From Deltaproteobacteria bacterium (GTDB lineage: Bacteria; Myxococcota; JADLHZ01), in assembly GCA_020848545.1 (NCBI GenBank), contig JADLHZ010000031.1, positions 18,483-82,482 of the forward strand: 64,000 nt of DNA. The letters are read 5' to 3'. Below are positions 3,687 through 32,761 of the stretch, piece by piece. Position 1 is the stretch's first letter. Each line of letters starts with the position of its first letter. The notes under the pieces were generated by a model. It was given only the letters and a program-made list of their open reading frames with translations. It searched no databases and was not told where the DNA came from. The translations under genes were made by a program, and so were the position numbers.

Positions 3687-3687
3687 C

Positions 3688-4119: not shown

Positions 4120-4125
4120 CGTTCT

Positions 4126-6140: not shown

Positions 6141-6166
6141 TTTCTCGCCAACACGGAGGTCCTAAA

Positions 6167-8420: not shown

Positions 8421-8431
8421 AGAACTCCCTT

Positions 8432-11734: not shown

Positions 11735-11735
11735 C

Positions 11736-12179
11736 TCATTTCTCCAGTGACTTCAGATACGCGACGAGCAACGGCAGCTCGGTCTTCGGATCCACGCCTT
11801 GTGCTGGCATTGGCGTGAAGTGCGTCGCGAGGAGCTGCTTCGCCACCGGATCTTCCTTCACCATCACGTCGGGGCTGAGGACCATCCGCTGGATCCACGG
11901 CACGGTGCGGCGCGCGGTCACGCCTTTCAACCCCGGTCCGACGAGCTTCGTGTCGTCGGTCTTGTGACACGCCGGGCAGCCCTTCGCCGTGAAGATGCCC
12001 TTGCCCTTCTCGATGTCCGGAGCGGCCGTGCTCACGGTGATCGGGTCGATCTTGATCGACGCGGGTCCGTCTGGGCTCGCAGCGGCCGCTGCTGGTTCCT
12101 CGGCCTGAAGCTGCGGCTTCGCCGGAGCTTTTGTTTCGGTGCAGCCAAACAACGCGAGCGCAAAGAGTACGCGATACAT
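11736..12179 (-). CDS. Lipoprotein mono-haem c-type cytochrome (clade II nos-associated cytochrome c)
   Basis: Start MYRVLFALALFGC (lipobox). Single CPACH haem motif. Lies 14 bp downstream of nosZ. Confidence 0.75.
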   Translation of the reverse strand: MYRVLFALALFGCTETKAPAKPQLQAEEPAAAAASPDGPASIKIDPITVSTAAPDIEKGKGIFTAKGCPACHKTDDTKLVGPGLKGVTARRTVPWIQRMVLSPDVMVKEDPVAKQLLATHFTPMPAQGVDPKTELPLLVAYLKSLEK

Positions 12180-12193
12180 GGTGTGTTCCTTTC

Positions 12194-14167
12194 TCACTGT
12201 GCCGACGCGGTCTTCAGCCGCGGCTTGACCAAGAAGTAGCCCGCCATCTCGAGGTGCAGTGCCGAGCAAAATTCGGTGCAGTACATCGGATAGACGCCGG
12301 CCTTGTCGGCGACGAAGGTGATGTTCTCGTGCTTGCCTGGCTCGAGGCTGACGTTGATGTTGTACATGTTGAGCGCGAAGCCGTGCGTCTGATCGTCCGC
12401 CTGCTCGAGGCTCGTCAGGTGCAGGTTCACGGTGTCGCCTTCGTTCACCTCGATGCGATCCGGCGTGAAGTGGCTGCGGATGAGCGACATGTAGACGTCG
12501 ACGGTGGTGCCCTTGCGATCGATGCGTTCTTTGCCGGCCTCGGCGCGGAAGGGATCGAGCTTCTCCGTATACGGGTTCGTGCCGACGGCGTACTTCATGA
12601 CCGGCTTCAGCTTGTCCATCTTGATCATCTGCGAGTAGTGCGGCTCGCCGATGGCGATGGGCATGTCGTAGATGAGCTTCATCTTTGGGCCGCTCGCGTC
12701 GATGAGCTGGAAGTTCTGCGGCAACAGTGGGCCGACGCGGCTGAAGCGATCCATCGACATCTTGTTCATCGCGACGACGTACTTGCCGTCGGGGCTCACG
12801 GTGTCGCCCTCGGCCGCCATGATGTGGCCGATGTTGTAGTGGACTGGAAGCTTCTCGAGCAGCTTCATTTCCTTCAGTGACCACTTGGCGACGACGCTCT
12901 CGATGAAGACGGAGGTGTAGACGTTGCCCTTGTCGTCGAAGACCGAGTGCAGTGGTCCCAGGCCGATTTCGACTTGGCCGCGGATGCTGTCCTTGAACGC
13001 GAGGATCGGCACACCATAGGCGTCCTTGCCCTCGAACTTCTTCTCTTCGATCAGCGTCTTCAGCTTGCTGAACTCGTAGACCGTCGCGTGCGTGTCGAGC
13101 TTGCCGCCGACGACGACGGCGGTTCCGTCAGGCGTGACGTCGCAGCCGTGCGGGCTCTTCGGCTCGCCGACGAGCGTCAACACGCCCTCGGCGCCTGAGA
13201 CTTCGAGCGGCAACACTTTGAAGCCTTTGATCGTCTTCGCCTTGCCGGCTTTGACGAGCTGCTCGGCCTTTTTCCAGTTGATGATGTGCAAGTAGTCCAT
13301 GTCGTTCTGTGAGGCGCCGGACTCGATCGGGGGCTTGCCTTCCAGCACGCCACCGGTCGCCATCTCGGTGTTGAACGAGTTGATGAAGACGTAGCCGTCG
13401 GAGCCGAGCTTGCCGGCGTCGGCGAGATCCTGCGTGTAGGGCGGAAGCTCGACGGCCCAGCTGTTCTCGGGCTCGATGCGGCCGTGCTCCTTGTTGAACT
13501 TCCAGAACATCGCGAGCCCGCGGTACTTGTCCTTGTACTCGCCGATCGCAGCGTATTCGCGACCGAGCGGCGCCGGGTACTGGCTCGTCTCGACGATGTA
13601 GGTCGTGTTCGGATCGACGAAGGCGCCGCCGTGATCGCTCGAGATCAACGGATTGGCGACGATCTGCTTGGTCATGAAGTCGCTGAGATCGATGACCGCG
13701 ACGCGCGCGTTCGCCTTGTCGTTCACGAAGAGGTACTTGCCGTCGTAGTCGCCGTTCGTCTCGGAGAGGTTCGGGTGGTGCACGTCGGCCCAGGTGATCG
13801 ACTTGCCGTTCTGCTTGCCCTGATCGAACATCTCTTGGCCGCTTTTCGATCCGTAGCCGTAGCCTTGCCACGGCTCGGGGGCGAACACGCCGATCAGCTT
13901 CAGCATGCGCATCGACGGCACGCCGATCGCGAGCACTTGGCCGCCGTGACCGCCCGACGCGAAGATCATGTACTCATCGGCTTTACCGCCAGGTGTGTAC
14001 GTCTTCAGCGCGGCCTCGACGTCGGCCTCGGTGAGTTGGCGCGCGGTCATCAGCTCTTTGACTGACGAGCTGCCGGCGGGCTGGGTAGGTGCGCTGCCGC
14101 CTGTGCAACCGATGACGAGCGCGGCAGCGAGCGCCCATCCGAGAACGATGACGTGGTTTTGTTTCAT
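12194..14167 (-). CDS. nosZ: Nitrous-oxide reductase NosZ, clade II (Sec-type lipoprotein signal)
   Basis: CuA motif YPMYCTEFCSALHLEMAGY at the C-terminus. Beta-propeller CuZ domain histidines. Start MKQNHVIVLGWALAAALVIGCTGG is a lipobox, not Tat. ORF upstream extension rejected. Confidence 0.92.
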   Translation of the reverse strand: MKQNHVIVLGWALAAALVIGCTGGSAPTQPAGSSSVKELMTARQLTEADVEAALKTYTPGGKADEYMIFASGGHGGQVLAIGVPSMRMLKLIGVFAPEPWQGYGYGSKSGQEMFDQGKQNGKSITWADVHHPNLSETNGDYDGKYLFVNDKANARVAVIDLSDFMTKQIVANPLISSDHGGAFVDPNTTYIVETSQYPAPLGREYAAIGEYKDKYRGLAMFWKFNKEHGRIEPENSWAVELPPYTQDLADAGKLGSDGYVFINSFNTEMATGGVLEGKPPIESGASQNDMDYLHIINWKKAEQLVKAGKAKTIKGFKVLPLEVSGAEGVLTLVGEPKSPHGCDVTPDGTAVVVGGKLDTHATVYEFSKLKTLIEEKKFEGKDAYGVPILAFKDSIRGQVEIGLGPLHSVFDDKGNVYTSVFIESVVAKWSLKEMKLLEKLPVHYNIGHIMAAEGDTVSPDGKYVVAMNKMSMDRFSRVGPLLPQNFQLIDASGPKMKLIYDMPIAIGEPHYSQMIKMDKLKPVMKYAVGTNPYTEKLDPFRAEAGKERIDRKGTTVDVYMSLIRSHFTPDRIEVNEGDTVNLHLTSLEQADDQTHGFALNMYNINVSLEPGKHENITFVADKAGVYPMYCTEFCSALHLEMAGYFLVKPRLKTASAQ

Positions 14168-14182
14168 GATCGACGCAGTGAG

Positions 14183-14197
14183 CAAAAGAGGTGCCAC
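14183..14197 (-). promoter_or_regulatory. Sigma-54 promoter (perfect TGGCAC-N5-TTGC) for nosZ
   Basis: Minus strand reads TGGCACctcttTTGC. The -12 GC lies about 16 nt upstream of the nosZ ATG, so the transcript would be leaderless. Confidence 0.7.
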
Positions 14198-14248
14198 CGA
14201 CGAAAAGCGCGTAGCTTCGTGTTCTTGTGCGCGAGTGTTTCCCTCTCG

Positions 14249-14287
14249 TAACGAAGTCATCCCCGCCGTAGCGAAGCGGTAACGAAG
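14249..14287. promoter_or_regulatory. Three direct repeats GTARCGAAG between the divergent nosZ and FixH-like promoters (UAS candidate)
   Basis: gtaacgaag at 14249, gtagcgaag at 14268, gtaacgaag at 14279. The last two form CGAAGCGGTAACGAAG. Confidence 0.45.
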
Positions 14288-14313
14288 CGCATGGTTCCTC
14301 GGGCTGAGCGCCT

Positions 14314-14331
14314 TGGTTCGGAAGCTGCAAC
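14314..14331 (+). promoter_or_regulatory. Sigma-54-like promoter (TGGttcg-gaag-cTGCA) for the FixH-like/OMP genes
   Basis: GG/GC spacing is exactly 10. Predicted TSS coincides with ATG 14342 (leaderless). Divergent from the nosZ promoter. Confidence 0.5.
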
Positions 14332-14341
14332 CTCTCGGCGC

Positions 14342-14722
14342 ATGAAACTCGCGTATGCTTTTTGGGGGCTCGCGTTCTTGGCGGCGTGCGGCCCATCGCC
14401 GACCCCTGCGTCCAGCGACGGCCTCCGCGTCGAGCTCGCGTTCGAGAGCGGAGAGGCTGCTCTCGGCGACAACACGCTGCTCGTGCGCGTCTACGACCAA
14501 GGCGATCGGCCGATGGACGCCGAGGTCACGATGCACCTGCACATGCCGGCGCACGGACACGACCACGGCGATGCCAAGCCACCCGAGCTCACGCGGCGTG
14601 ACACCGGCGTGTACGCGCTCTCACCCGTGCGCTTCTCGATGGCAGGCGAGTGGAGGGTACACGTCAAGTGCAACTGCCCGATGGGCAACGGCGAGGCCGA
14701 GCAGATGGTCATGGTGCGCTGA
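14342..14722 (+). CDS. FixH/YtkA-like periplasmic lipoprotein (putative Cu-binding)
   Basis: Start MKLAYAFWGLAFLAACG (lipobox). Contains HLHMPAHGHDHG His/Met-rich segment and a VRFSMAGEWRVHVKC beta-sandwich. Divergent from nosZ. Confidence 0.5.
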   Translation: MKLAYAFWGLAFLAACGPSPTPASSDGLRVELAFESGEAALGDNTLLVRVYDQGDRPMDAEVTMHLHMPAHGHDHGDAKPPELTRRDTGVYALSPVRFSMAGEWRVHVKCNCPMGNGEAEQMVMVR

Positions 14723-14735
14723 GCGGCGGTGGTCG

Positions 14736-15623
14736 ATGTTCACGCGCAGCCTGATCCTCTTTGCGTTCGCGATCGTTGCGGGAGTTCCGGCGCGCGTTGA
14801 AGCAGGCTGCTGCTTCTCGACCACGGCGACGACGACCGCGCGCCTCGCGACTTGGGAGAAGGGCGTCGCTGGCTTGTCGGCGTCGTACGTGCGCGAGCTC
14901 GGCTACTTCAGCTCCGCAGCGCGCGCGGTGCCGCTCGGCGCCGGCACCGCGGATCAACAGCTTCGCTTCGATCTCTTCGGCCTCGTGCGTGTCACCGACG
15001 CCCTGACGCTCTCGCTGCTCATGCCGCTGTCGATGAACGCACGCTCGGCCTCGGGCGTCTTTGCGCTCGGCGGTGGCCTCGGCGACATCGCCGTCGGCGC
15101 TCGCTACGACTTGCTCCAGTTCGATCACTCGAATCGTCCCGGCCTCGCGCTCATCGCCGGCATCGCGATCCCGACCGGTCGCGCGATCGGCGCGGCGGAG
15201 CGCGCGCTCGCCGTCGACGCGACGGGCCGCGGCACGGCCATCCTCAACCTCGGCGTGAGCACCGAGTGGGCGTCGGAGCCGTGGTTCGTGCGCGGCGATC
15301 TCGTGGGCGGCATTCCGATGCCGACGGCGCAGGACGGAACCTGGGCGTGGCTCTCGCCGACCCTCGATCTCACGCTGATGGGCGGTGTGCGCGCGCATCG
15401 TTACTTGTTCTTCGGCGCCATCGCGCGCTTCGGGGTGCAGCTGCCGACGCGATCGCAAGCGTTCGGATACGATATGGCGCTCGGCGGCGGCGTCGCGTTG
15501 AAGCCGGATCCGCAGTGGGCCGTGCTCGTGAACGTCAGCGTCAGTCTGTTTGCGCCCGGCGCCGGCATGAACCGGAATGCGCCGCTCACCGCGAGCCTGG
15601 CGCTCCGCTATGCAGCCTGGTGA
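14736..15623 (+). CDS. Secreted outer-membrane beta-barrel protein (MetA-pathway/transporter-like family)
   Basis: Signal peptide MFTRSLILFAFAIVAGVPARVEA. Alternating amphipathic beta-strands. C-terminal aromatic residue W. Confidence 0.5.
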   Translation: MFTRSLILFAFAIVAGVPARVEAGCCFSTTATTTARLATWEKGVAGLSASYVRELGYFSSAARAVPLGAGTADQQLRFDLFGLVRVTDALTLSLLMPLSMNARSASGVFALGGGLGDIAVGARYDLLQFDHSNRPGLALIAGIAIPTGRAIGAAERALAVDATGRGTAILNLGVSTEWASEPWFVRGDLVGGIPMPTAQDGTWAWLSPTLDLTLMGGVRAHRYLFFGAIARFGVQLPTRSQAFGYDMALGGGVALKPDPQWAVLVNVSVSLFAPGAGMNRNAPLTASLALRYAAW

Positions 15624-15745
15624 AGCCGGTGGTCGCCCTAGGCTGCGCTGATGTTACGCAGCAGTAACTAGGATCCCACCGTTCGGTAACCCGCGGGGGC
15701 TGCGCCGGCTTGCAAGTGTGCACGGCGTTTGCAAAAGCGAGCGGG

Positions 15746-16207
15746 ATGATCACCCGAATCCTCCTGATGCTCGCGCTCGGCAGTGTCGTTCAAGATGGAC
15801 CGAAGAAGCTGCCGCTCCCGGGCTACATCTCACCACAGTTGCGCAAGGTGCTCGACAAACGCATGGAGCATCACGGCCGCGGGGCGATCGGCCTTTCGAT
15901 CGCGGTCGTCCTCCTCGCGCACGACGACGTCGCGGAGCTCGCGCTCGGGCTCGCGGAGCAGCCAGGCCTCGCGCGCCCCCGTCTCGGCGAAGAAGGCACC
16001 CTCAACGCGACGCTGCCGGCGCAGTTCTTTTCGTTTCAAGACCAGCTGCGCGAGCGCGCCAAGGAGCTCGCGGCGGCGGCGAAGCAGAAGAACAACGCGA
16101 AGATGCACGCGGCGCTCGGGCGCGTCACCGAGACGTGCATGACTTGCCACGCTGTTTACTTGAACGGCCCAGGCAGCGAAGAGAAGTGGTGGCCTCGAGA
16201 CGAATGA
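15746..16207 (+). CDS. Cytochrome c'-like (class II c-type cytochrome) protein
   Basis: Signal peptide. Helical ~150 aa. Single CMTCH haem motif near the C-terminus, as in cytochrome c'. Confidence 0.6.
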   Translation: MITRILLMLALGSVVQDGPKKLPLPGYISPQLRKVLDKRMEHHGRGAIGLSIAVVLLAHDDVAELALGLAEQPGLARPRLGEEGTLNATLPAQFFSFQDQLRERAKELAAAAKQKNNAKMHAALGRVTETCMTCHAVYLNGPGSEEKWWPRDE

Positions 16208-17064: not shown

Positions 17065-17888
17065 GAGCGCTTGGCACCGCGCTTGCGAGAGCACTCGCCA
17101 TGCTCGGCGCTGCTCTGCCTTCGATCGCCTTTGACGACGCTGGTCACGGCTACGATCGCTTCGGGCTGTCTCCGTCCGCCTTGCGCGTCGCGTTCGCCGC
17201 CGCGTGGCCGCTCTATCGCTACTACTTTCGCGTCGCGAGCGTTGGCGCCGAGCACGTGCCAAAGGCCGGCGCGGCGATCGTCGTCGCGAACCATTCGGGC
17301 ATGCTGCCCTTTGACGGAATGATGTTGTGCATGGACGTGGCGCAGCAGCGGCAGCGCGCGCTGCGGCCGCTCGCCGATCATGCGGTCGGCGCGCTGCCGT
17401 TCATCGGCGTCGCCATGCAGCGCATCGGCGCGGTGTCCGGCACCAGCACGAACGCGCGCGCGCTGCTCGAGGCCGGCGAGATCTTGCTGGTGTTCCCTGA
17501 GGGCGTGCCAGGGATCAGTAAGCCCGCGCGACGAAAGTATCGCCTCACGCACTGGCGGCCGGGCCACGCAGAGCTCGCGCTGCGGCACAAGGCGCCGATC
17601 ATCCCGGCGGCAGTCGTCGGCGCCGAGGAGCAATTCCCGATCGTACACAACAGCAAGCGCCTCGGCCGGCTGGTCGGCGCGCCGCACGTGCCGCTGCCGT
17701 TTCTGCCGGTGCCGTTCGTGCCGGTGCCGCTGCCGGTGAAGTACCGCATCTATTATGGCGAGCCGATTGTTCCCGAGGGTGACGCCAACGATCCGAGCGC
17801 CGTCGAGCACGCGGCGTGGCAGACGCAGAACGCGGTGCAGGCGTTGATCGCGCGTGGGCTGCGCGAACGACGCGGGAGCTTCTGGTGA
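17061..17888 (+). CDS. Lysophospholipid (1-acyl-glycerol-3-phosphate) acyltransferase, PlsC family
   Basis: NHSGMLPFD (HX4D) and FPEG motifs. GTGA start-stop overlap. Alternative ATG at 17100. Confidence 0.75.
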   Translation: MRALGTALARALAMLGAALPSIAFDDAGHGYDRFGLSPSALRVAFAAAWPLYRYYFRVASVGAEHVPKAGAAIVVANHSGMLPFDGMMLCMDVAQQRQRALRPLADHAVGALPFIGVAMQRIGAVSGTSTNARALLEAGEILLVFPEGVPGISKPARRKYRLTHWRPGHAELALRHKAPIIPAAVVGAEEQFPIVHNSKRLGRLVGAPHVPLPFLPVPFVPVPLPVKYRIYYGEPIVPEGDANDPSAVEHAAWQTQNAVQALIARGLRERRGSFW

Positions 17889-19895: not shown

Positions 19896-20678
19896 ATGAA
19901 AGGCACGATCAGGTCGTTTTACGAGCGCTACCCGCGGCGGTGGAGTTACCCGGTTGCGGGGCTCGTGCTCGCGCTCGGCGCGCCGATCGGCTTCTTCGTC
20001 GTGCGCGCGCTCTTCGCCGGTCACATTCCGTCGCCGATGTGGATCGAGGTCGAGCTGCGGGAGCGCTTCGATGCTTACGTCTACCTCACCTTCGCCACGG
20101 CGATCGTCTTCTCCTGGGCCGGCCGCGTCGTCGGTGTCGAGCAAGATCGCGTGCGCGCGGACTCGCTGACCGATCCGCTCACCAGCCTGCCGAACCGGCG
20201 CTTCGCGCAAGAACGCGCCGAGGCGCTGCTCTTGCGCGGGGATCCGCGCGTCTCGGTGTTGCTCATCGATCTCGACGGCTTGAAGCAGATCAACGAGAAG
20301 CACGGCCATGACGGCGGCGATCGTGCGCTCTGCGCCGTCGCGGCGACGCTGCGTAAAGTCTGCCGGCGTGAAGACGTGTTCGCGCGCTACGGCGGCGACG
20401 AGTTCATCGTGCTCTTGCCGAAGATGGTCGCCGCCGACGCGATGCGTGTCGCCGAACGCGTGTGCGCGACGATGACGAAGACGGCGCAGACGAACGGCCT
20501 TGGTCCACTCTCGGTGTCCATCGGGGTCGCCGATACCGAGACGGCCGCGACGAACACGCTGCTCGGGCTGGTGCAGGCGGCCGATGCGGCGCTGCAAGCC
20601 GCGAAGCACGAAGGCAAGAACCGTGCGAAGCTGGCCCGCTCGTTGCACAAAGCCGCCGGCAAGGGAGCCGTCTCATGA
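19896..20678 (+). CDS. GGDEF-domain diguanylate cyclase with N-terminal TM region
   Basis: RYGGDEF active site. GGAGG RBS 6 bp upstream of ATG 19896. Confidence 0.85.
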   Translation: MKGTIRSFYERYPRRWSYPVAGLVLALGAPIGFFVVRALFAGHIPSPMWIEVELRERFDAYVYLTFATAIVFSWAGRVVGVEQDRVRADSLTDPLTSLPNRRFAQERAEALLLRGDPRVSVLLIDLDGLKQINEKHGHDGGDRALCAVAATLRKVCRREDVFARYGGDEFIVLLPKMVAADAMRVAERVCATMTKTAQTNGLGPLSVSIGVADTETAATNTLLGLVQAADAALQAAKHEGKNRAKLARSLHKAAGKGAVS

Positions 20679-21127
20679 CCACGAAGAAGATCCTTGCCGC
20701 CCTCGACTTCTCCAAGTTCTCGCAGGAGGTCGTCAACTTCGCCGCTGACTTCGCGCGCCGTTACGATGCGTCGCTCACGCTCCTGCACGTCGCGGATGAG
20801 CCGAACCGCGTCTTCCCCGAGGGCTTCGTCGCGATCATGCCGGCGCGGACCACCGAGTTGCTGAATCTGCTCGAGATGGCGCTGGCCGACGCAAAGAAGG
20901 AGGCGATCGCGGCTGGCGCAACGAACGTGAGCACGATGCTCGTGAAGGGCGTGCCCTTCGCCGAGATCGCGCAGATCGCGCAGGACAAAGCGTACGACAC
21001 GATCATCGTCGGCACCCACGGCCGCACTGGGCTCATGCACGCGCTGCTCGGCTCCGTCGCCGAGAAGGTGGTGCGCAGCGCGCCATGCACCGTGATCACC
21101 GTGCGCGATCGCGCCGCGGCGAAGTGA
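20675..21127 (+). CDS. Universal stress protein UspA
   Basis: Start MTTKKILAALD. ATGA overlap with GGDEF stop. AAGGGAG RBS. Confidence 0.8.
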   Translation: MTTKKILAALDFSKFSQEVVNFAADFARRYDASLTLLHVADEPNRVFPEGFVAIMPARTTELLNLLEMALADAKKEAIAAGATNVSTMLVKGVPFAEIAQIAQDKAYDTIIVGTHGRTGLMHALLGSVAEKVVRSAPCTVITVRDRAAAK

Positions 21128-23009: not shown

Positions 23010-24329
23010 TCATACGAGCCGCATTTTCTTCGCCGCGTCGAGCAGCTCGTCGCGAAATCGCGGCGAAGCGATGGCGATGAGCCCGAGCGCTCGTTCGCGC
23101 ACGGATTTGCCTTTGAGATCGAAGACGCCGTGCTCGGTGACCGCAAAATGCGTGTCGGTCCGGGGTGTCGTGACCGGCCCGCTCAGCTTTGGCACGATGC
23201 GCGACACGCTGCCGTTCTGGGCGGTCGATTGGAACGCAATGATCGACTTGCCGCCGCGCGAGGCGTAGGCGCCGCGCACGAAGTCGACCTGGCCGCCGGC
23301 GCCGCTGTACTGCTGGCCAGCGACGAACTCCGAGTTACAGGCGCCGAAGAGATCCATCTCGAGCGTCGCGTTTACCGACACCACGTTGTCGAGCTGCGCG
23401 ACGATGGCCGGATCGTTCACGTAGCTCACCGGGTAGCTCTCGACGCCCGGGTTGTCGTTGATGAAGTCGTAGAGCCGCGCGTCGCCCATCGCGAAGGTGA
23501 AGACGGTCTTGCGCCGGTTGAGCGCCTTCAGCCGGTTGGTCACGACGCCCCGCTCGATGAGATCGACGAGCCCGGGCGTCAACAGCTCGGTGTGGATGCC
23601 GAGATCTTGGTGGTTGACCAGCGCTCGGCACACCGCGTTCGGCACCGCGCCGATCCCCATCTGGAGCACGGCGCCGTTCGGCACGAGCTCGGCGATGCGC
23701 CGGCCGATGAGGTCGTCCACCGGGCGCACCGGCGCCGGCGCACACTCGAGCAGCGGCGCGTCGTGCTCGACGATCGCATCGACCTCGGCAACGTGCAGCA
23801 ACGAGTCGCCGAACACCCGCGGCATCCGCGGGTTCACTTCGACGATTAAGCGCTTCGCGGAGCGCGCGACTTGCGAGCCGTAGTCGTTGTTGGTGCCGAA
23901 GGTGAAGTAGCCGTGCTCGTCCATGGGCGACACCGTCACCACGAAGGTATCGATGGCGACGTGCTCGGAGAGGAAGCGCGCCGATTGGCTGAAGTGGTTT
24001 GGCACGAAATGGATGACCGTGCGTTCCTCTGCGCGGCGCATGAGCTCCCGCTCGATCGCCGACAAGAACATGCAGTGTGGGGCGATGCGATCGAGCAGAT
24101 CGAAGGCGAGGATCGTGCTCTTCGCGTGCTCCTTCGACTCGAAGTAATAGACGCGCAGGTCGCGGAGCGCATCGTGACGGACGCGGTCGGCGATCGCCGC
24201 GAGCAGCGCCGGCGGCTCCGACACGCCCATGCCCATCGAGAGCTTGGAACCGCTGGCGATCGAAGACACCGCCGCCGCGGGCGTCGCCAGCTTCGCTGCG
24301 TATTCGCCGCGAGCGTTCACTTCGGCCAT
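23010..24329 (-). CDS. Acetyl-CoA hydrolase/transferase family protein (4-hydroxybutyrate CoA-transferase-like)
   Basis: 439 aa with N- and C-terminal AcetylCoA_hydro domains. Conserved GIG and EMDLFGACNSE regions. Confidence 0.8.
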   Translation of the reverse strand: MAEVNARGEYAAKLATPAAAVSSIASGSKLSMGMGVSEPPALLAAIADRVRHDALRDLRVYYFESKEHAKSTILAFDLLDRIAPHCMFLSAIERELMRRAEERTVIHFVPNHFSQSARFLSEHVAIDTFVVTVSPMDEHGYFTFGTNNDYGSQVARSAKRLIVEVNPRMPRVFGDSLLHVAEVDAIVEHDAPLLECAPAPVRPVDDLIGRRIAELVPNGAVLQMGIGAVPNAVCRALVNHQDLGIHTELLTPGLVDLIERGVVTNRLKALNRRKTVFTFAMGDARLYDFINDNPGVESYPVSYVNDPAIVAQLDNVVSVNATLEMDLFGACNSEFVAGQQYSGAGGQVDFVRGAYASRGGKSIIAFQSTAQNGSVSRIVPKLSGPVTTPRTDTHFAVTEHGVFDLKGKSVRERALGLIAIASPRFRDELLDAAKKMRLV

Positions 24330-24475
24330 ACGAACCTCTGACGCGTCACCCGATCACTTTTCGTGCCACTTTCGCATACTTGTGGCGAAGCGGAAGATGT
24401 TTCGGCTTGGTAACGCCGCCGATGGGATCGTCACCGACAGGTGCGTTTCCCTCGGTGTCTTCGCGGTGAACTCCT

Positions 24476-24491
24476 TGGTGTGCGCTTTGCA
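24476..24491 (+). promoter_or_regulatory. Sigma-54 promoter (TGGtgtg-cgct-TTGCA) for Host_attach-EBP-kinase operon
   Basis: Correct GG-N10-GC spacing. TTGCA -12 element. About 15-nt leader with GAGGTG SD before ATG 24517. Confidence 0.6.
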
Positions 24492-24516
24492 TAAAAGCCG
24501 CCTTCGAGGTGAAACG

Positions 24517-24879
24517 ATGGAGACGATCTGGGTCCTGGTCTGCAACCAAAAGAGCGCTGTGATCCTGAGCGCCAAAGCGCGGACCGCAGCTCCTCAGATC
24601 GTGGAGACCATCGGCAATCCCGACGAGAGCGACCCTCTGGTCTTTGCGCGGCGCTTGGCGGCGATGCTCGAGAGCGCGGCCGATATGGGCGGCTTCGATC
24701 GCCTCGTCGTCATGGCGCCGGCGCCGTTTCTCGCCAGCCTCGAGGACGTGTTCCATGCCCCGGTGCGAGGGCGCATTGCCCTCACCATCCAGGAAGACAT
24801 CGCCGAATGGCCGATGCCGGAGATCGTTGCGTCGGTACGCAAAATCATCGATGAGCAGGTGCGTGTAGCCGGCGCCTAG
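24517..24879 (+). CDS. Host_attach (baeRF1-like) family small protein
   Basis: IWVLVCNQKSAVIL ... GFDRLVVMAPAPFLASL ... DIAEWPMPEI matches the Host_attachment signature. GAGGTG RBS. Sits downstream of a sigma-54 promoter. Confidence 0.55.
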   Translation: METIWVLVCNQKSAVILSAKARTAAPQIVETIGNPDESDPLVFARRLAAMLESAADMGGFDRLVVMAPAPFLASLEDVFHAPVRGRIALTIQEDIAEWPMPEIVASVRKIIDEQVRVAGA

Positions 24880-24903
24880 GCGCAAACGGCGAGGGGAAGG
24901 TAG

Positions 24904-26268
24904 ATGCTTTCGATCTTGCTCGTAGACGATGAGCCTTCGATCCGGTTGGCGGTCGGCGATGCCCTCGCCGGCAACGGGCACAAGGTGACGCGCGCCAGTG
25001 ACGGCGGCGAGGCACTCGCGCTGCTCGATGCACAGGTCTTCGACCTCGTGGTCACGGACATCAGCATGCCCAAGGTCGACGGGCTGACGCTCTTTCGTAA
25101 GTTGCGCGAAGCGAGCCCGTCGACCGACGTCATCTTGATGACCGCGTACGGCAAGGTGACCGACGCCGTCGAGGCGCTCAAGCAGGGTGCTGAAGACTAC
25201 CTGACGAAGCCTTTTTCTACGGAAGAGATGCTCGTGCGCGTGCAGCGGATCGACGATCGCCGCGCGTTGAAGCGCGAGCTGCAAGCGGCCAAGTCCGAGC
25301 TGACGGGGGGTGGCATCATCGGCCAATCGCCGGTGATGGTGCGCCTGCTCGATCGCATCGATACGATCGCAGCGAGCGATGCCAGCGTCTTGATCCTCGG
25401 CGAGAGCGGCACGGGCAAGGAGCTCGTCGCCAGGCGCTTGCACGATCAGAGCGCGCGCAAGGCGAAGCCCTTCGTCGCCGTCAACTGCGCCGCGTTTCCC
25501 GAGACGCTGATCGAGGCTGAGCTCTTCGGCCATGAGCGCGGTGCGTTCACTGGCGCGGCGCAGCGGCGCGAAGGCAGGTTCAAGGCGGCCGACGGCGGCA
25601 CGCTCTTTCTCGACGAGGTGGCCGAGATCCCGTTGCCGGTTCAGGCGAAGCTCCTGCGCGTGCTGCAAGAAGGGGTGTTCGAGCCGATCGGAACGAACAC
25701 GCCGATCAAGGTGAACGTCCGCGTCATCTCGGCCACACACAGAGATCTGCGCGCGCGAATCAAAGAGCACGCGTTCCGCGAGGATTTGTTCTATCGCTTG
25801 AACGTGCTCGACGTGCACCTGCCGCCCCTGCGCGAGCGTCGTGGCGACTTGCCGCTGCTCGTGGAGGCGTTCTTGAAGCGCGCAGTCGGTCGCGGCGGTG
25901 CGCAGCCGGCGGGGATCTCGCCGCGCGCGTGGGCAGCGCTCTCGGACTACTTGTTTCCGGGCAACGTGCGCGAGCTTCAGCACGCGATAGAGCACGCCGT
26001 CGTGCTCGCCCGCGGCGGCGAGATCGATCTGCACCACCTGCCGCGCGATATCGTCGGCATCGCCGAGGCCAAGAAGGATCAAGCGACGACTGCCGTACGG
26101 ACGCTGGCGGTGGCGGCCAAGGAGTTCGAGCGCGAATACCTCTTGCGCGCGCTGCACCAGGCCGACGGCAAGAAAGGACGCGCGGCGGACCTGCTCGGCA
26201 TCTCGCGCAAGAACCTCTGGGAGAAGCTCAAGGGTCATGACATCGCAGACAGCGACGACGACGCATGA
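24904..26268 (+). CDS. Sigma-54-dependent Fis-family response regulator (NtrC-like EBP)
   Basis: REC domain (D54 region VVTDISMP). AAA+ sigma-54 activation domain with GESGTGKE and GAFTGA. C-terminal Fis HTH. Confidence 0.9.
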   Translation: MLSILLVDDEPSIRLAVGDALAGNGHKVTRASDGGEALALLDAQVFDLVVTDISMPKVDGLTLFRKLREASPSTDVILMTAYGKVTDAVEALKQGAEDYLTKPFSTEEMLVRVQRIDDRRALKRELQAAKSELTGGGIIGQSPVMVRLLDRIDTIAASDASVLILGESGTGKELVARRLHDQSARKAKPFVAVNCAAFPETLIEAELFGHERGAFTGAAQRREGRFKAADGGTLFLDEVAEIPLPVQAKLLRVLQEGVFEPIGTNTPIKVNVRVISATHRDLRARIKEHAFREDLFYRLNVLDVHLPPLRERRGDLPLLVEAFLKRAVGRGGAQPAGISPRAWAALSDYLFPGNVRELQHAIEHAVVLARGGEIDLHHLPRDIVGIAEAKKDQATTAVRTLAVAAKEFEREYLLRALHQADGKKGRAADLLGISRKNLWEKLKGHDIADSDDDA

Positions 26269-26338
26269 GCGACGCGATGCAGACGCTCGGCAAGCGCGGG
26301 TTTGACGTCGTGCCGCTCCTGCGCGAACCCACGCCGCG

Positions 26339-27418
26339 ATGATCCGGGTCTTTCTCGTGGACGACGACGAGGACGACTACGTCCTCACGCGTGGCCTCCT
26401 CGGCGACATTCCCGGGAGCTTCGAGCTCGCGTGGATGCCGTCGATCGACAAGGCGCGCGCCGCGTTGCGCGACACAGTGCCCGACCTCATCCTGCTCGAC
26501 TATCTCCTTGGTGCCGAGAGCGGCCTCGATTTCCTGAAGGAGCTGCGCAGAGCCGGGCTCGGGCTGCCAGTGATTATCCTCACTGGGCAAGGCGATCGCG
26601 AGATCGACATGGCGGCCATGGCGGCCGGGGCCACGGACTACTTGGTGAAGAGCGAGCTCTCGGCCGCGATCTTGGACCGGGCGATCCGCTACGCGATGTC
26701 GGTGAGCGAGCTGCACCGAAAGCTGCTCGAGGATCACGAGCGCTTGCAGCAGATGGAGAAGCTTTCTGTCGTCGGGCTGATCGCCGCGGGGATCGTGCAC
26801 GAGGTGAGCAACCCGCTGACCGGCGTCATGAGTCTCGTGCAAGCGCTGCACGACGGCAAGGCGGGCGACTCGCGCGACGAGTACTTCAAGGCGGTCAAAG
26901 ACGGGCTCGAGCGGATGCGCGTCACCCTGCGATCGTTGCTCGATCTCGCGCGCGAGCAGCCGTTGACGCTCGCTGAGGTGGACGTCGCAGAGCTCGTGGC
27001 GGCCTGCTTTCGCCTGATGGCGGCCACGCTGCGCTCGCGCGGCATCACGCCGGTGCAGGACGTTCCCGCTGGCTTGCGCGCGCGCGCCGATCGATCGCGG
27101 GTGATTCAGGCGATCCTGAACCTGATGATGAACGCCGCCGACGCGACCCCCTCCGGCGGCAGCATCACGGTCAGCGTCACGAAGAAGCCCGGCAGCATCG
27201 GCATCGTCGTCACCGACACCGGCGCCGGCATTGCGCCCGCGATCGCCGAGCGGATCCTCGAGCCCTTCTTCACGACGAAGTCGGTGGGGAAGGGCACGGG
27301 CCTCGGCCTACCCTTCGTCGTCCAGACGGCGAAGCTCCACGGCGGCGACCTGACCATCGCCAGTCAGGTGGGCAAGGGGACGACGATGACGATGTGGCTA
27401 CGCGATGACGCGCGGTGA
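26339..27418 (+). CDS. Hybrid histidine kinase with N-terminal receiver (REC-HisKA-HATPase), cytoplasmic
   Basis: N-terminal REC (LLDYLLGAESG). H-box IVHEVSNPLTG. N, G1 and G2 boxes. No TM segment. Confidence 0.85.
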   Translation: MIRVFLVDDDEDDYVLTRGLLGDIPGSFELAWMPSIDKARAALRDTVPDLILLDYLLGAESGLDFLKELRRAGLGLPVIILTGQGDREIDMAAMAAGATDYLVKSELSAAILDRAIRYAMSVSELHRKLLEDHERLQQMEKLSVVGLIAAGIVHEVSNPLTGVMSLVQALHDGKAGDSRDEYFKAVKDGLERMRVTLRSLLDLAREQPLTLAEVDVAELVAACFRLMAATLRSRGITPVQDVPAGLRARADRSRVIQAILNLMMNAADATPSGGSITVSVTKKPGSIGIVVTDTGAGIAPAIAERILEPFFTTKSVGKGTGLGLPFVVQTAKLHGGDLTIASQVGKGTTMTMWLRDDAR

Positions 27419-27787
27419 GCGGCGACGGCGGCGCTCCTCGATGGTGCCGATGCGCGTGAGCAGCTCCTCCTCGGTGAACGGCTTCGTCAAGTACTCGTCG
27501 GCGCCGAGCTTGAACGCTTGCACCACGTTCGGAACGCTGCTGAACGCGGTCATGACCACGACGTCGGTCGTCGGGCTCAGCGTGCGGACTTCGCGCAAGA
27601 GCGTCATGCCATCCATCTCGGGCATGCTCACGTCGGTGATCACGAGATCGAAGACCTGCTTCGTGCACTTCTCGGTCGCCTCGACGCCGTCGTTGGCTCG
27701 CACCACGCGGTGACCGGCGCGCGTGAGAGCGTCGCCGATCGCCAGGCGGATCGACGGTTCGTCGTCGACGAGGAGGATGGAGAGCAT
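27398..27787 (-). CDS. Single-domain CheY-like response regulator, paralog of the EBP receiver
   Basis: MLSILLVDDEPSIRLAIGDAL is nearly identical to the EBP N-terminus MLSILLVDDEPSIRLAVGDAL. Codon usage differs, so the duplication is old. Confidence 0.85.
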   Translation of the reverse strand: MLSILLVDDEPSIRLAIGDALTRAGHRVVRANDGVEATEKCTKQVFDLVITDVSMPEMDGMTLLREVRTLSPTTDVVVMTAFSSVPNVVQAFKLGADEYLTKPFTEEELLTRIGTIEERRRRRSPRVIA

Positions 27788-27792
27788 GCGCT

Positions 27793-28044
27793 TTAGATCT
27801 TCTTCTTCGTCGTCTTCTGGAATTCGATCAGCGCTTGGATCGCGCCGCCGAGCGCTGCCGCGGAGACCTCCGTCACTTCGAGCGCGGCCTCCTCGGCCTT
27901 CAGCACGCGCGGTTCGAGCGCCGCCCACGCTTGCTTCAGCTCCATGCCGAACAAGTGCGCCTGCACGCGGATCTCGTCGCGCAGCGTGCGCAGCTTGCTC
28001 AGGCTCTCGTCGATCTGCTTCTGTAGCTCCTTCTTCTTTTCCAT
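27793..28044 (-). CDS. Small all-helical protein (83 aa), possible Hpt-like or coiled-coil connector
   Basis: Start MEKKKELQKQ. Coiled-coil heptads. AHLFGMELK is weakly Hpt-like. Lies between CBS and CheY genes in the same operon. Confidence 0.4.
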   Translation of the reverse strand: MEKKKELQKQIDESLSKLRTLRDEIRVQAHLFGMELKQAWAALEPRVLKAEEAALEVTEVSAAALGGAIQALIEFQKTTKKKI

Positions 28045-28070
28045 CGCCTGCTCCTCGTCCGTTTGTGAAA

Positions 28071-28520
28071 TTAGTCTTCGTCCAAGAGATCGAGCACCCA
28101 AGCGAGCGCCGCTAGCGCGTCGACGGCGGTGAAGATGCCGACGACGCGTCCCTTGTCTGCGACGACGGCCGAGCCGAACTTCTTGCGCGCCATCACCCGC
28201 ACCGTCTCGTCCAGCTTCGCCAGCGGCGCCACCACGTAGGGCTCCGACGTCATCGCCTCTTCGACCGCGATCGCGCCCGGATCGACACCGTCGAGGGTCT
28301 CGACCATCTCGAGATCGCGCTGCGACACGATGCCGACCAGCTTGCCGCCGTCGAGCACGGGCAAGTGGCGGATGCCGTGCTCGCGCATCAGCTCGTGCGC
28401 TTTCTGCAGTGTTTGCTTCCTACCAATCGTATGCGGCGTGGCGGTCATGTACTTGTCGACCGTCTCGGCGACGTGCTTGCCCCTGATCGAGATCGTCTGT
28501 GCTCGTGGCCTAGGCGACAT
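28071..28520 (-). CDS. CBS-domain pair protein
   Basis: Two CBS motifs (HLPVLDGGKLVGIVSQRDL and AVVADKGRVVGIFTAVD). GGAGGA RBS. Sigma-54 promoter upstream. Confidence 0.8.
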   Translation of the reverse strand: MSPRPRAQTISIRGKHVAETVDKYMTATPHTIGRKQTLQKAHELMREHGIRHLPVLDGGKLVGIVSQRDLEMVETLDGVDPGAIAVEEAMTSEPYVVAPLAKLDETVRVMARKKFGSAVVADKGRVVGIFTAVDALAALAWVLDLLDED

Positions 28521-28545
28521 GTTCGAATCCTCCGGCGACAGGAAT

Positions 28546-28561
28546 TGCAAAGTAGGGACCA
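28546..28561 (-). promoter_or_regulatory. Sigma-54 promoter (TGGtccc-tact-TTGCA) for CBS - small protein - CheY operon
   Basis: Minus-strand sequence TGGTCCCTACTTTGCA. About 17-nt leader with GGAGGA SD before ATG 28520. Confidence 0.6.
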
Positions 28562-28600
28562 AGGTCGAATGCCTGGGCTCATCGGTGGAATGGTTTCGAA

Positions 28601-28630
28601 TCGGTAACGCCCGCCCGTTGGTGCGTTACC
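28601..28630. promoter_or_regulatory. Palindrome CGGTAACGC-N12-GCGTTACCG upstream of CBS-operon sigma-54 promoter (UAS candidate)
   Basis: Perfect 9-bp inverted repeat, 45-75 bp upstream of the -24 element. Confidence 0.5.
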
Positions 28631-28636
28631 GCCGGG

Positions 28637-29044
28637 TCAGCGGCTGTTGTGGCAGCTCGTGCAGGATCCGGTCAGCGCGCCAGCGAGATAGTAGTTCGGA
28701 GGGTCGGCCTCGGCTGCCAGCTTCGCGGCCGTTACCGCGCGCCGAAAGTCATCGAGGTGCTCGTCGATCTTCGGGTGATTCGTCGGCTTGCCGTCGAGCG
28801 TCGCCGCGTGTGCTTGCATGAGCGAGAGCCGGTCGACCACGTCTTTTCCCACGACGAGCGGCGCCGGTCGCTGCAGCAGGTTTTCGAGCTCGACGACGTC
28901 CCCCGCGAGGAGCCACATCGTCGTCCTCAACTCCGCGCGCGGAATGTAGTGGAAAGTCGGCGCGTAGGTCACGGCGCGAATGCTTCCGGTCAGCGGTGCG
29001 CAGGCGAGAAAAAGCGCGGCGAACGGGAGGAGCTTGCGGGTCAT
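28637..29044 (-). CDS. Cytochrome c'-like lipoprotein (second copy)
   Basis: Lipobox LFLACAP. Helical. C-terminal CTSCH haem motif. Confidence 0.55.
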   Translation of the reverse strand: MTRKLLPFAALFLACAPLTGSIRAVTYAPTFHYIPRAELRTTMWLLAGDVVELENLLQRPAPLVVGKDVVDRLSLMQAHAATLDGKPTNHPKIDEHLDDFRRAVTAAKLAAEADPPNYYLAGALTGSCTSCHNSR

Positions 29045-29087
29045 GCGCCGCGGAGTTGCACGAGTCGGACCAAGCACGGCTGACGCT

Positions 29088-29951
29088 TCAGGCAAAAACG
29101 AAGCGATCGGCGTACCCGGCGGCGGCGGTATCGACTTCTCCGCGCGCCGCCGTTTGCATCAGGCGATCGCGGCCGCAGAGCAGCGCGAGCTCCGGAATGT
29201 CGCGCATGACGCCCCAGACGACGACGGGCAGCACGCGCTTCGCCACCGCCAAGCGCACAGGGCCGAGGCGGCTGCGCACGAAGTGAACGTGGCCCACCTC
29301 GTCGACCATGATCTGCGCGAAGAGCGTCTCGATGCGCGCGAGCACGGCGGGCTGATCGGCGAAGAGCACGCGCGCCTTTTCGAGCAGCAATGTGAAGATC
29401 GCGACGCCCACGATCTCTCCGCAGAGCACGAAGACGTCGGACATCTGGCTCGGCAGGCGCACCATGGCGTTGACCATGGCGCGGGTCACGGCGGTCGGCC
29501 GGCCGATCTCGACCGTGAGGCCGATCGTCGCGAGCGCGTCGCGCAGGATCCGCGTGTGATAGAGCTCTTCGATCATGATGTACGCGTGCGGGTCGTTTGC
29601 GGCGTCGGGCGGCTTGCCGTTGTGGGCGATCTCGAAGTCGACGCCGAAGCGCTCGGCGCGGTTGGTCTTAGCCGTGGCGAGCGCCCACAGCGTGCGTTCG
29701 TCGAGGCCGCGCTCGGGGACCCGGCGTTCATGATTGCGATCGAACACGCGTTGATCGACCGGCGGCCGCCCGCACCAGCACTGCGGCTGCGCATCGACGC
29801 CGGCGAAGAAGCGCTCGCGGATGTCGAAGCGCTGGGCGTCGAGATCGGGCGTGCCATCACGGGCGTGCAAATAGGCGAGGTAGGCGCTGCGGAAGCGACT
29901 TTGGTCGGCGGCGCTCATCGGATCGAAGGCGGTGCTCACCTGCTGCTCCAT
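29088..29951 (-). CDS. Ferritin-like di-iron carboxylate protein (AurF/DUF-type oxygenase-like)
   Basis: Two ExxH motifs (EELYH, DEVGHVHF) with upstream E residues. Start MEQQVSTAF. Confidence 0.5.
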   Translation of the reverse strand: MEQQVSTAFDPMSAADQSRFRSAYLAYLHARDGTPDLDAQRFDIRERFFAGVDAQPQCWCGRPPVDQRVFDRNHERRVPERGLDERTLWALATAKTNRAERFGVDFEIAHNGKPPDAANDPHAYIMIEELYHTRILRDALATIGLTVEIGRPTAVTRAMVNAMVRLPSQMSDVFVLCGEIVGVAIFTLLLEKARVLFADQPAVLARIETLFAQIMVDEVGHVHFVRSRLGPVRLAVAKRVLPVVVWGVMRDIPELALLCGRDRLMQTAARGEVDTAAAGYADRFVFA

Positions 29952-31459: not shown

Positions 31460-32761
31460 CTAACTGTCGAAACGAATCCCGTCTTTCTGCATCTGCTCGG
31501 GCGTCGCGGCGCTCGCCGTCGTGCCCGGCGGATGTTTGTACCATCCTTGCGCGTCCGGCGCCGACGGATCGTCGCGCACCTTCAACACCGTGAACATGCC
31601 GCCCATGTCGATGTAGCCGAACGGCCCGTTGCCGCCGCGCATCGGCGCGCTGTTCTCCGGGATCGGCATGATCATCTCGCCCATCCCGCCCATGCCCGTC
31701 GTGCCCATCGTCATGTACTCGGGCAGCAAGCGCTCCATCCGCTGCTCGAGCTTCGTCATGTCGGCGCCGACCATCGGCACGATGCCGTGGCCCATCTGCA
31801 TCATCACGTGGTGGGTCATGTGGCAGTGCATCGCCCAGTCGCCTGATTCAGGCGGCGTGAACTCGATCGTGCGCGTGCTGCCGACCGGCACGAGCACCGT
31901 CGTCTCGGCATGCTGCGCGCTCGCGGGCGTGTCGCCGCCGTCGGTCGCGGTGACGGCGAAGTTGAGGCCGTGGATGTGGATCGGGTGGTGATCCATCGGG
32001 CTCAAGTTGCCGAAGCGCATGCGCACGCGCTCGCCTTTGCCGACGAGCATCGGCTGCGTGGCCGGGAACGCCTTGCCGTTGAACGTGAGCACGTTGAAGT
32101 CGCTCATCGCGTTCGGATCTGGGCGCTTGGTGCCGGCGGCGATCTTCCACTCGTGCGTCATCAAGGCGAAGTCGCGATCGACCTTCTTCGCCTGCTTCGG
32201 ATGGACGACGAACATGCCGTGCATGCCGAGCGCGATCTGCGTCATCTCGTCGAAGTGCGGGTGATACATGAAGGTGCCGTGCTGCCTCAGCGTGAATTCG
32301 TAGACGAAGGTTTGCCCCGGCGCGATCGGCGGCTGGTTGAGCCCGGAGACGCCGTCCATTCCGTTGGCCAAGATGATGCCGTGCCAGTGCACGGTGGTCG
32401 GCTCGCGCAGGCGGTTCGTCACGTAGAGGCGCAGGCGATCGCCTTCCATGCACTCGATCGTCGGCCCGGGCGTGCCGCCGTTGTAGCCCCAGACGCGCAC
32501 CTTCAAGCCCGGCGCGAAGTCGTGCTCGAATTCCTCGGCGACGAGGTGGCCGACCTTGACGTTGCCGACGGTGCGCAAAGGCAAGGTCGATCCGTTCGGC
32601 GTGACGACGGCGAGCGGCCCGCCTGGTGTGACGGCCGCGCTCTTCGCTGACGGCGTGTCGGTCGCGTTGGCAGCCGCGGCGGGCGCCGCGTCCGCGTGGC
32701 GCGTCAAGATCGCCGCGCTCGCGGCGGCGCCCGTCAATTGTAGGAACTTGCGTCGGTGCAT
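31460..32761 (-). CDS. Multicopper oxidase with Tat signal and Met-rich region (CopA-like)
   Basis: Tat motif RRKFLQL. HWHG, HPHFD and HCHMTHH sites. MTMGTTGMGGMGEM Met-rich segment. Confidence 0.85.
   Translation of the reverse strand: MHRRKFLQLTGAAASAAILTRHADAAPAAAANATDTPSAKSAAVTPGGPLAVVTPNGSTLPLRTVGNVKVGHLVAEEFEHDFAPGLKVRVWGYNGGTPGPTIECMEGDRLRLYVTNRLREPTTVHWHGIILANGMDGVSGLNQPPIAPGQTFVYEFTLRQHGTFMYHPHFDEMTQIALGMHGMFVVHPKQAKKVDRDFALMTHEWKIAAGTKRPDPNAMSDFNVLTFNGKAFPATQPMLVGKGERVRMRFGNLSPMDHHPIHIHGLNFAVTATDGGDTPASAQHAETTVLVPVGSTRTIEFTPPESGDWAMHCHMTHHVMMQMGHGIVPMVGADMTKLEQRMERLLPEYMTMGTTGMGGMGEMIMPIPENSAPMRGGNGPFGYIDMGGMFTVLKVRDDPSAPDAQGWYKHPPGTTASAATPEQMQKDGIRFDS

Follow-up and report, generated by a model that had tools for sequence, protein, structure and literature searches.

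Introduction

The closest described system to the circuit examined here is the NmpRSTU phosphorelay of Myxococcus xanthus, with its NmpR regulon (PMC11841059; PMC6211767). Our subject is a stretch of 64,000 nucleotides from a Deltaproteobacteria bacterium of the Myxococcota (contig JADLHZ010000031.1; G+C content 66%), referred to hereafter as the window, in which region 24395-24516 precedes a gene of the Host_attach family that is followed by genes for an NtrC-type sigma-54 activator and a hybrid histidine kinase. In M. xanthus, the hybrid kinase NmpS (REC-HisKA-CA) is kept off by phosphorylation from the haem kinase NmpU, which is active while oxygen is present; as oxygen falls, NmpS phosphorylates the NtrC-like NmpR (PMC11841059). 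It has been shown experimentally that NmpR activates its own operon, whose first gene encodes a CBS protein, from a sigma-54 promoter; its other sigma-54 targets are nmpUTS, a Usp gene, a P-type ATPase together with cbb3 oxidase, and hemN together with hemerythrin (PMC11841059). According to the authors of that work, the Nmp regulon outside M. xanthus is unknown (PMC11841059).

The window resembles this system in its parts. An NtrC-type activator and a REC-HisKA-CA hybrid kinase are encoded by adjacent genes, a stand-alone receiver of uncertain correspondence to NmpT is present, and a sigma-54 promoter with an upstream enhancer is predicted from the sequence at the first gene of the activator operon. 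In orthologous loci (given by L numbers, individual proteins by P numbers), which were collected with the activator and not Host_attach as anchor, the activator gene is flanked by PAS-histidine kinase, REC and REC-histidine kinase genes in U-T-S order, and the neighbourhoods hold genes for Usp, CBS, hemerythrin, BON, P-type (cation) ATPase and cbb3 oxidase proteins. That is, the regulon classes known from M. xanthus (CBS, Usp, P-type ATPase/cbb3, hemerythrin, hemN) adjoin the orthologues, many with a sigma-54 motif and copies of the pentamer GTWAC. The window itself holds a CBS gene, two Usp genes, HemN, NnrS and a nos cluster. Because the same parts recur around the orthologues, we read the window circuit as one that would work like Nmp, in the sense of a likeness of architecture and not of strict NmpR orthology. 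The differences are equally specific. The window enhancer consists of phased GTWAC pentamers, whereas NmpR sites are two copies of GCGCA-N5-TGCGC 14-15 bp apart; the window operon starts with Host_attach/baeRF-12, and a convergent operon of its own begins with the CBS gene; the activator gene is followed immediately by that of the kinase; the window receiver, which copies that of the activator, has one REC domain and NmpT two; in relatives, a PAS-HisKA kinase replaces the globin-coupled, haem-binding NmpU; and nosZ, ytkA and a cytochrome c' gene are candidate targets.

Half-sites of the GTWAC kind are recognised by CbrB of Pseudomonas (TGTTAC/GTAACA; PMC6296734), and the GcsR site is TGTAACG-N4-CGTTCCG (PMC4894688). 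Both proteins are sigma-54 activators with a Fis-type helix-turn-helix (HTH) domain and GTAAC/GTTAC half-sites in multi-subsite arrays, but their regulons differ (carbon catabolite control, glycine cleavage), as does the spacing, and they have no close kinship to the window activator. In clade I denitrifiers, nosZ is under FNR/DNR/NnrR or FixK2 (e.g. PMC5582078). There, too, nosZ expression is under low-oxygen control, but the regulators are of the CRP/FNR type, the promoters use sigma-70 and the enzyme is Tat-dependent, unlike the Sec-dependent clade II nosZ of the window with its sigma-54 promoter. DosR/DevR of Mycobacterium tuberculosis controls a hypoxia-induced, self-amplifying two-component regulon that is rich in Usp proteins and includes a CBS protein and a cation ATPase. 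The likeness lies in hypoxia-type self-amplification and in these Usp, CBS and cation ATPase classes; the regulator, however, is of the LuxR/NarL type and acts at sigma-70-type promoters, with neither an AAA+ activator nor sigma-54.

A system of this kind has been described before, so that the circuit is a variation on it and its core brings no new claim. Novelty lies in the different, phased enhancer code, in the place of Host_attach at the head of the operon, in the operon with the receiver copy, and in clade II nosZ as a candidate member.

Results

The probable control region of a self-activating operon

We consider region 24395-24516 to be probably the control region of a self-activating operon, in which a sigma-54 promoter and a GTWAC enhancer 40 bp upstream would serve a low-oxygen, Nmp-like circuit. 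The enhancer pentamers GTAAC (24410) and GTCAC (24430) are two helical turns apart, and form an inverted repeat, GGTAAC-N15-GTCACC (24409-24435), that ends 40 bp before the TGG of the promoter. The sequence basis of this reading comprises the promoter motifs, gene content, conservation, and the enrichment and phasing of GTWAC; the features are collected in Table 1. An autoregulated sigma-54 circuit had been proposed in the original prediction, a note made from the DNA letters of the window, and it is supported, at the level of sequence and by analogy, by the conserved promoter, the GAFTGA motif of the activator and the precedent of NmpR self-activation. The idea is sound and, since NmpR is known to activate its own operon, not new in kind.

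Table 1. Positions of the predicted regulatory elements and of the genes they precede, in window coordinates (a dot marks elements given no strand).
Feature	Positions	Strand	Details
Predicted enhancer (upstream activating sequence) of Host_attach promoter	24399-24434	.	GTTTC 24399-24403 (weak), GTAAC 24410-24414, GTCAC 24430-24434
Sigma-54 -24/-12 promoter TGGTGTGCGCTTTGCA	24476-24491	+	GG 24477-78, GC 24489-90; spacing GG-N10-GC
Shine-Dalgarno GAGGTG	24506-24511	+	5 nt before Host_attach ATG
Host_attach / baeRF family 12 gene	24517-24879	+	120 aa; Pfam PF10116 + PF18856
NtrC-type sigma-54 activator, NmpR-like output regulator	24904-26268	+	REC, Sigma54_activat, AAA_lid_14, HTH_8
Soluble hybrid kinase, NmpS-like architecture	26339-27418	+	REC, HisKA, HATPase_c
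Stand-alone receiver	27398-27787	-	129 aa; single REC
ORF between CBS and REC genes	27793-28044	-	83 aa; no Pfam match
CBS-pair protein, first gene of convergent operon	28071-28520	-	start of operon running 28520 down to 27398
Sigma-54 motif TGGTCCCTACTTTGCA	28546-28561	-	25 nt before CBS ATG
Perfect inverted repeat GGTAAC-N16-GTTACC	28603-28630	.	41 bp upstream of CBS promoter TGG
Near-consensus sigma-54 motif TGGCACCTCTTTTGCT	14181-14196	-	13 nt before nosZ ATG (14167)
GTWAC array common to nosZ (-) and ytkA (+)	14237-14283	.	minus strand GTTAC, GCTAC, GTTAC, GAAAC
Sigma-54-like motif TGGTTCGGAAGCTGCA	14314-14329	+	12 nt before ATG of YtkA-like lipoprotein gene (14342-14722)
GTWAC triple, then GTGCACGGCGTTTGCA	15653-15733	+	pentamers at 15653, 15664, 15686; GTGCACGGCGTTTGCA 15718-15733; before cytochrome c' gene (15746-16207)

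Phased GTWAC arrays and the activator that may read them

The recurring unit of the enhancer is the self-complementary pentamer GTWAC, in arrays of 2-4 copies spaced 10-11 or 20-22 bp apart. An initial model with one inverted repeat (GGTAAC-N15-17-GTTACC) was too narrow; the array model was adopted because the half-sites at ccoN in L169 are reversed and nosZ has direct repeats. The inverted-repeat layout recurs in the Host_attach/activator operon of L085 (gap to the TGG 42 bp), in L082, where the activator is 84% identical (gap 38; the opposite strand carries a further promoter, which faces a cation ATPase, with gap 39), and at a porin gene of L083 (gap 50). A strict scan of 862 kb for GGTAAC-N14-17-GTTACC with at most 2 mismatches, followed 25-70 bp on by TGG-N8-YTGCW, returned five independent matches, all in the window and its three closest relatives; shuffled sequences gave about 0.45. 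A looser combined scan for enhancer and promoter was dominated by noise (29 matches vs 12-23 in shuffles) and was discarded.

The position of the pentamers is as regular as their sequence. Measured from the T of TGG, GTWAC starts gather near -35, -45, -56, -66, -76 and -87, with a Rayleigh R of 0.78 at a period of 10.5 bp (p ~2e-5, one site per promoter). A sigma-54-like motif lies 20-59 bp from 11 of the 14 GTWAC clusters in 163 kb. Because the number of clusters by itself does not clearly exceed that in mononucleotide shuffles (14, where shuffles averaged 5.9 and reached 16 at most), the signal is the association of clusters with sigma-54 motifs. L169, a 6-Mb contig of a metagenome-assembled genome whose activator is 65% identical, played no part in building the model; it has arrays upstream of ccoNO, of a PAS-kinase/activator operon and of a Usp gene. 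No 5-mer is more enriched than GTAAC/GTTAC between -100 and -21 of the 16 promoters compared (28 vs 0.66 expected, p ~1e-35), although the p-values given here are optimistic, the promoter set having been chosen partly with the enhancer in mind; the L169, L166 and nosZ promoters were picked by gene position and sigma-54 motif alone.

Besides this selection, several observations weigh against a self-activating Nmp-like circuit. The Host_attach promoter has a single perfect pentamer, accompanied by GTCAC and the weak GTTTC; GTWAC is absent at two sigma-54-like promoters, that of the window Usp gene (20632) and that of Host_attach in L166; and at many loci where the activator is 54-65% identical, no array was seen in the stretches examined. 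No match to GCGCA-N5-TGCGC with up to 2 mismatches was found upstream of the Host_attach, CBS or Usp promoters, and no paired sites of this type in any locus fetched. The M. xanthus NmpR consensus was accordingly rejected as the site used in the window, where its 164 matches (up to 2 mismatches) are GC-rich background and are missing from the relevant promoters. Either the specificity has diverged, or the activator is not a true NmpR orthologue. Furthermore, the window yielded no second histidine kinase that could be an NmpU-like sensor, although such a protein may be encoded beyond it.

Myxococcota carry dozens of sigma-54 activators, and the GTWAC arrays could belong to another of them. The promoter would then be real, the arrays would be owned by an activator encoded elsewhere, and the downstream activator would merely be a target. 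The abundance of NtrC-like activators in Myxococcota (PMC11841059) speaks for this arrangement, as do the difference between GTWAC and the experimentally defined NmpR site, the regulon-like promoters that have no GTWAC, and the HTH recognition helix LGISRKNLWEKL, a common type that carries little information on specificity. We nevertheless think it unlikely. In four other genomes (L082, L084, L085 and L169), whose neighbourhoods otherwise differ, GTWAC arrays immediately precede the gene or operon of the orthologous activator, and such arrays are rare near more distant activators: strict phasing criteria gave 5 matches in 231 kb of loci with activators at least 54% identical, vs 1 in 1.06 Mb for the more distant ones. 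Self-activation, moreover, is experimentally established for NmpR, which matches in architecture. Control of the operon by its own activator thus remains our preferred reading.

The promoter and the element first proposed upstream of it

The original prediction placed a sigma-54 promoter of exact spacing 25 nt before the Host_attach gene, and this was confirmed. TGGTGTGCGCTTTGCA agrees with the consensus TGGCACG-N4-TTGCW at TGG, G7 and TTGCA; the ATG at 24517 follows after 25 nt (24492-24516), and transcription is predicted to start near 24502. The strict motif TGG-N8-TTGCW occurs 7 times in the window vs 1.62 +/- 1.17 times in shuffles, none of 100 of which got to 7, and in four cases (at the nosZ, Usp, Host_attach and CBS genes) a start codon follows 13-27 nt downstream. 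A chance -24/-12 match, with the operon read from an unrecognised promoter of another type, is very improbable. Looser GG-N10-GC scoring does give more than 50 matches in the window, mostly intragenic, so that a loose score is uninformative alone; the strict motif, however, is about 4-fold over chance and is expected some 0.002 times in the 187-bp spacer. It is also conserved: TGGTGTGTCACTTGCA precedes the Host_attach ATG in L085, and TGGTGCGTGGCTTGCA precedes another Host_attach gene in L166, a contig with an 88% identical nosZ, the promoter being kept as TTGGTG(T/C)G-N4-YTTGCA in both genomes and the spacers around it having otherwise diverged. No sigma-70-like promoter or terminator-like site was found in 24200-28700. 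From motif, spacing and conservation we have high confidence that TGGTGTGCGCTTTGCA is a real sigma-54 promoter. The window does not encode rpoN.

For an RNA element in the spacer, an Rfam search gave no informative score; the only match, to an S15 leader, was below threshold (E = 0.17), and this candidate was dropped. On the other strand of the spacer, TGGCACGAAAAGTGAT (24353-24368, -) precedes the divergent acetyl-CoA hydrolase/transferase gene by 23 nt, and TGGCATGAATCGTGAT has the equivalent position in L085 (794-809, -), ahead of a different gene. Both are of a type with a perfect -24 half, GTGAT for TTGC at -12 and a GTWAC pentamer at -46.

The original prediction had also described a composite upstream element that recurs near nosZ. 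Its strings are present near the positions proposed: GGCGAAGCGGAAG at 24384-24396 (about 80-92 bp upstream of TGG), TTGGTAACGCC at 24407-24417 (about 59-69 bp) and CGAAGCGGTAACG at 14272-14284, near nosZ. The GGTAAC part holds up, since GGTAACG is above chance (8 seen vs 2.08 expected; 0 of 100 shuffles), with five of the eight copies 48-175 bp upstream of the three sigma-54-like promoters of Host_attach, CBS and nosZ. The idea that GGCGAAGCGGAAG plus TTGGTAACGCC, matching CGAAGCGGTAACG, is itself the shared site can be set aside almost entirely, because, although both strings were found in place, CGAAGCGG occurs at chance frequency (11 seen vs 11.3 expected), CGAAGCGG and GGCGAAGCGGAAG are absent from the orthologous Host_attach promoter of L085 and from the CBS promoter, and enrichment and phasing are seen for GTWAC only. 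On this sequence comparison, the GGTAAC part is assigned to the phased pentamer array and not to a composite with CGAAGCGG.

Genes of the operon

The predicted order of Host_attach, activator and REC-HisKA-HATPase genes in one orientation was borne out by Pfam, with gaps of 24 and 70 nt and no terminator between the genes. Host_attach scores 53.6 bits with PF10116 (cut-off 26.7) and 57.9 bits with PF18856 (cut-off 27.7), and only the C-terminal half of the Host_attach profile matches the window protein. A longer in-frame open reading frame (ORF) from 24229 would overlap the divergent acetyl-CoA hydrolase/transferase gene; we take the ATG at 24517 as the true start because the N-terminus METIWVLVCN aligns with those of homologues such as P0122 (METVWTLVAN). 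In alignment, the window protein is a short form that lacks a central loop of about 36 residues. In the longer homologues this loop holds a conserved HPE...PG motif; a few other short forms, of 112-121 aa, exist. With Host_attach as query, a GTDB genome scan gave nothing and a word-indexed protein database returned no close relative, only the protein itself; a full HMMER scan found, among others, a closest relative of 153 aa that is 48% identical. The family alignment proved too divergent for use in scanning metagenomes. The two closest activator orthologues, P0003 (88%) and that of L085 (85%), keep Host_attach directly upstream.

For proteins of the baeRF-1 group that consist of the core domain alone, non-catalytic binding to ribosomes and a link to hibernation have been predicted, and their loop length is unconstrained (PMC6514570). 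A possible role of Host_attach in slowing translation at low oxygen would fit. In L166 (19595-19713), the 186-aa gene directly upstream of Host_attach, whose product has no assigned function, has three GTTAC pentamers and TGGCGCGCCTCTTGCT; Host_attach thus appears to be a member of the regulon even where it is unlinked to the activator.

The activator (PF00072, PF00158, PF25601, PF02954) carries GAFTGA, the Walker A motif GESGTGKE and the receiver aspartate. It falls below the NCBIfam cut-offs of all named equivalogs (AtoC, NtrC, ZraR, GlrR, NtrX, NorR), its best scores being 454 vs 714 for AtoC and 445 vs 559 for NtrC, and it is therefore none of these named regulators. The REC-histidine kinase is 49% identical to the REC-HisKA gene that adjoins the orthologous activator in L083, and the pairing of activator and REC-HisKA-CA kinase is found both there and in the P0005 locus.

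The convergent CBS operon

An enhancer of the Host_attach type is predicted from sequence also to drive the convergent operon of CBS, small ORF and receiver genes, which had been overlooked earlier. The best enhancer in the window is in fact that of the CBS operon. The stand-alone receiver shares 61% identity with the REC of the activator itself, against just 24% with the REC at the NmpT position of L083. Because it is a copy of the activator's REC, competition for phosphate and hence negative feedback are likely; we speculate, from the architecture, that it may act as a phosphate decoy or sink and so give this feedback with a delay.

nosZ, ytkA and cytochrome c'

The window nosZ is of the Sec-dependent clade II (TIGR04246, 831 bits), with a lipoprotein-type signal, and its promoter TGGCACCTCTTTTGCT is the best sigma-54 motif in the window. 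The four pentamers of the array have positions of about -87, -76, -56 and -45 counted from the nosZ TGG; the array also keeps phase with the TGG of ytkA, at -66 and -35. A single GTWAC array, as judged from this double phasing, appears to serve the divergent nosZ and ytkA promoters. One array between two divergent promoters is also seen in L082 (activator/cation ATPase) and L084 (Usp/BON). The cytochrome c' promoter is uncertain, its -24/-12 motif being imperfect (TG for the -24 GG).

The nosZ orthologue of L166 (region 9937-10003) has TGGCATCACGCTTGCT, with GGTAACAcccaGTTACCgaagcGTAACG ending 38 bp upstream, and the ytkA gene of L166 has a GTWAC pair and a sigma-54-like motif. The L167 orthologue (79%) has TGGCATGGTCATTGCC (about 3930-3945) and one GTAACG. 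Among more distant nosZ genes (76-79% identical), L168 and L171 show weak sigma-54-like motifs without GTWAC, and L170 has neither; the link to nosZ is therefore restricted to the lineage. Within the lineage, the tie between nosZ and the Host_attach promoter through sigma-54 motif and GTWAC is real at the sequence level. The original prediction that the activator acts on its own operon and on nos through a common site holds in so far as GTWAC is shared and phased; the site built on CGAAGCGG was wrong. Full-text searches of the literature turned up no paper in which clade II nosZ is controlled through sigma-54 or by an Nmp-type system.

Proposed mechanism and implications

By analogy with NmpRSTU, the hybrid kinase would phosphorylate the activator at low oxygen. 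The phosphorylated activator would oligomerise on the GTWAC array, on the same helix face as the promoter, and would use ATP to open the sigma-54 complex, yielding more activator and kinase in a positive feedback. The same enhancer-promoter module would drive the CBS/small-ORF/REC operon, whose REC copy may exert negative feedback by competing for phosphate, and with a related array the module likewise stands ahead of clade II nosZ, with its divergent ytkA, and of the cytochrome c' gene. Binding of the activator to GTWAC, the low-oxygen signal and the two feedback loops are what we infer from the arrangement.

A broader proposal, which we put forward tentatively and regard as somewhat less than an even prospect, is that a Polyangia-like group of Myxococcota runs an Nmp-type low-oxygen sigma-54 regulon with a phased GTWAC code, often between two divergent promoters, and that this regulon took in clade II nosZ and a loop-less, putatively ribosome-binding protein of the baeRF1 type. 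If true, oxygen sensing would be coupled directly, via sigma-54, to the reduction of nitrous oxide (N2O) and to translational shutdown. Among the sinks for N2O, a greenhouse gas, carriers of clade II nosZ are important, and a sigma-54 promoter with a recognisable enhancer at such a gene provides a concrete, testable hypothesis that names regulator, site and signal. For uncultured relatives, the comparison also yields predictions of Nmp target genes and of a binding motif that differs: relative to Nmp of M. xanthus, the enhancer sequence would have changed while circuit and target classes were kept. The uncharacterised Host_attach/baeRF1 family, for its part, would gain a physiological context at low oxygen, beside Usp and CBS proteins.

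Other sigma-54 motifs and surroundings

The Usp gene at 20675-21127 (+), which encodes 150 aa and had been missed by a simple ORF filter, is preceded by a good sigma-54 motif, TGGCCCGCTCGTTGCA (20632-20647), within the 3' end of the upstream GGDEF gene. Since no GTWAC array is found there, the gene may depend on a different activator or on a site further away. TGGCACCGCGCTTGCG (17072-17087, +), likewise with no GTWAC array, begins 8 nt past the stop codon of a cation-efflux gene, and an acyltransferase gene (17100-17888) follows it after 12 nt.

The distance from motif to start codon has a two-mode distribution. Motifs end 11-14 nt before the start at nosZ, ytkA, cytochrome c' and 17072-17102 of the window, and elsewhere at 948-977 of L085, at Usp and Host_attach of L166, and at Usp of L169; leaderless or near-leaderless mRNAs are expected for these genes. 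The remaining motifs end about 25 nt before the start and are followed by a clear Shine-Dalgarno sequence.

Segments 2358-16207 and 31460-32761 have the appearance of a low-oxygen/denitrification island, with genes for HemN, two multicopper oxidases, a LuxR-type regulator, NnrS, nosZ, nosD, ATP-binding cassette (ABC) proteins, YtkA and two cytochrome c'-like proteins. One of the two cytochrome c'-like genes, at 28637-29095 (-), has no Pfam match and encodes a CxxCH motif at its end.

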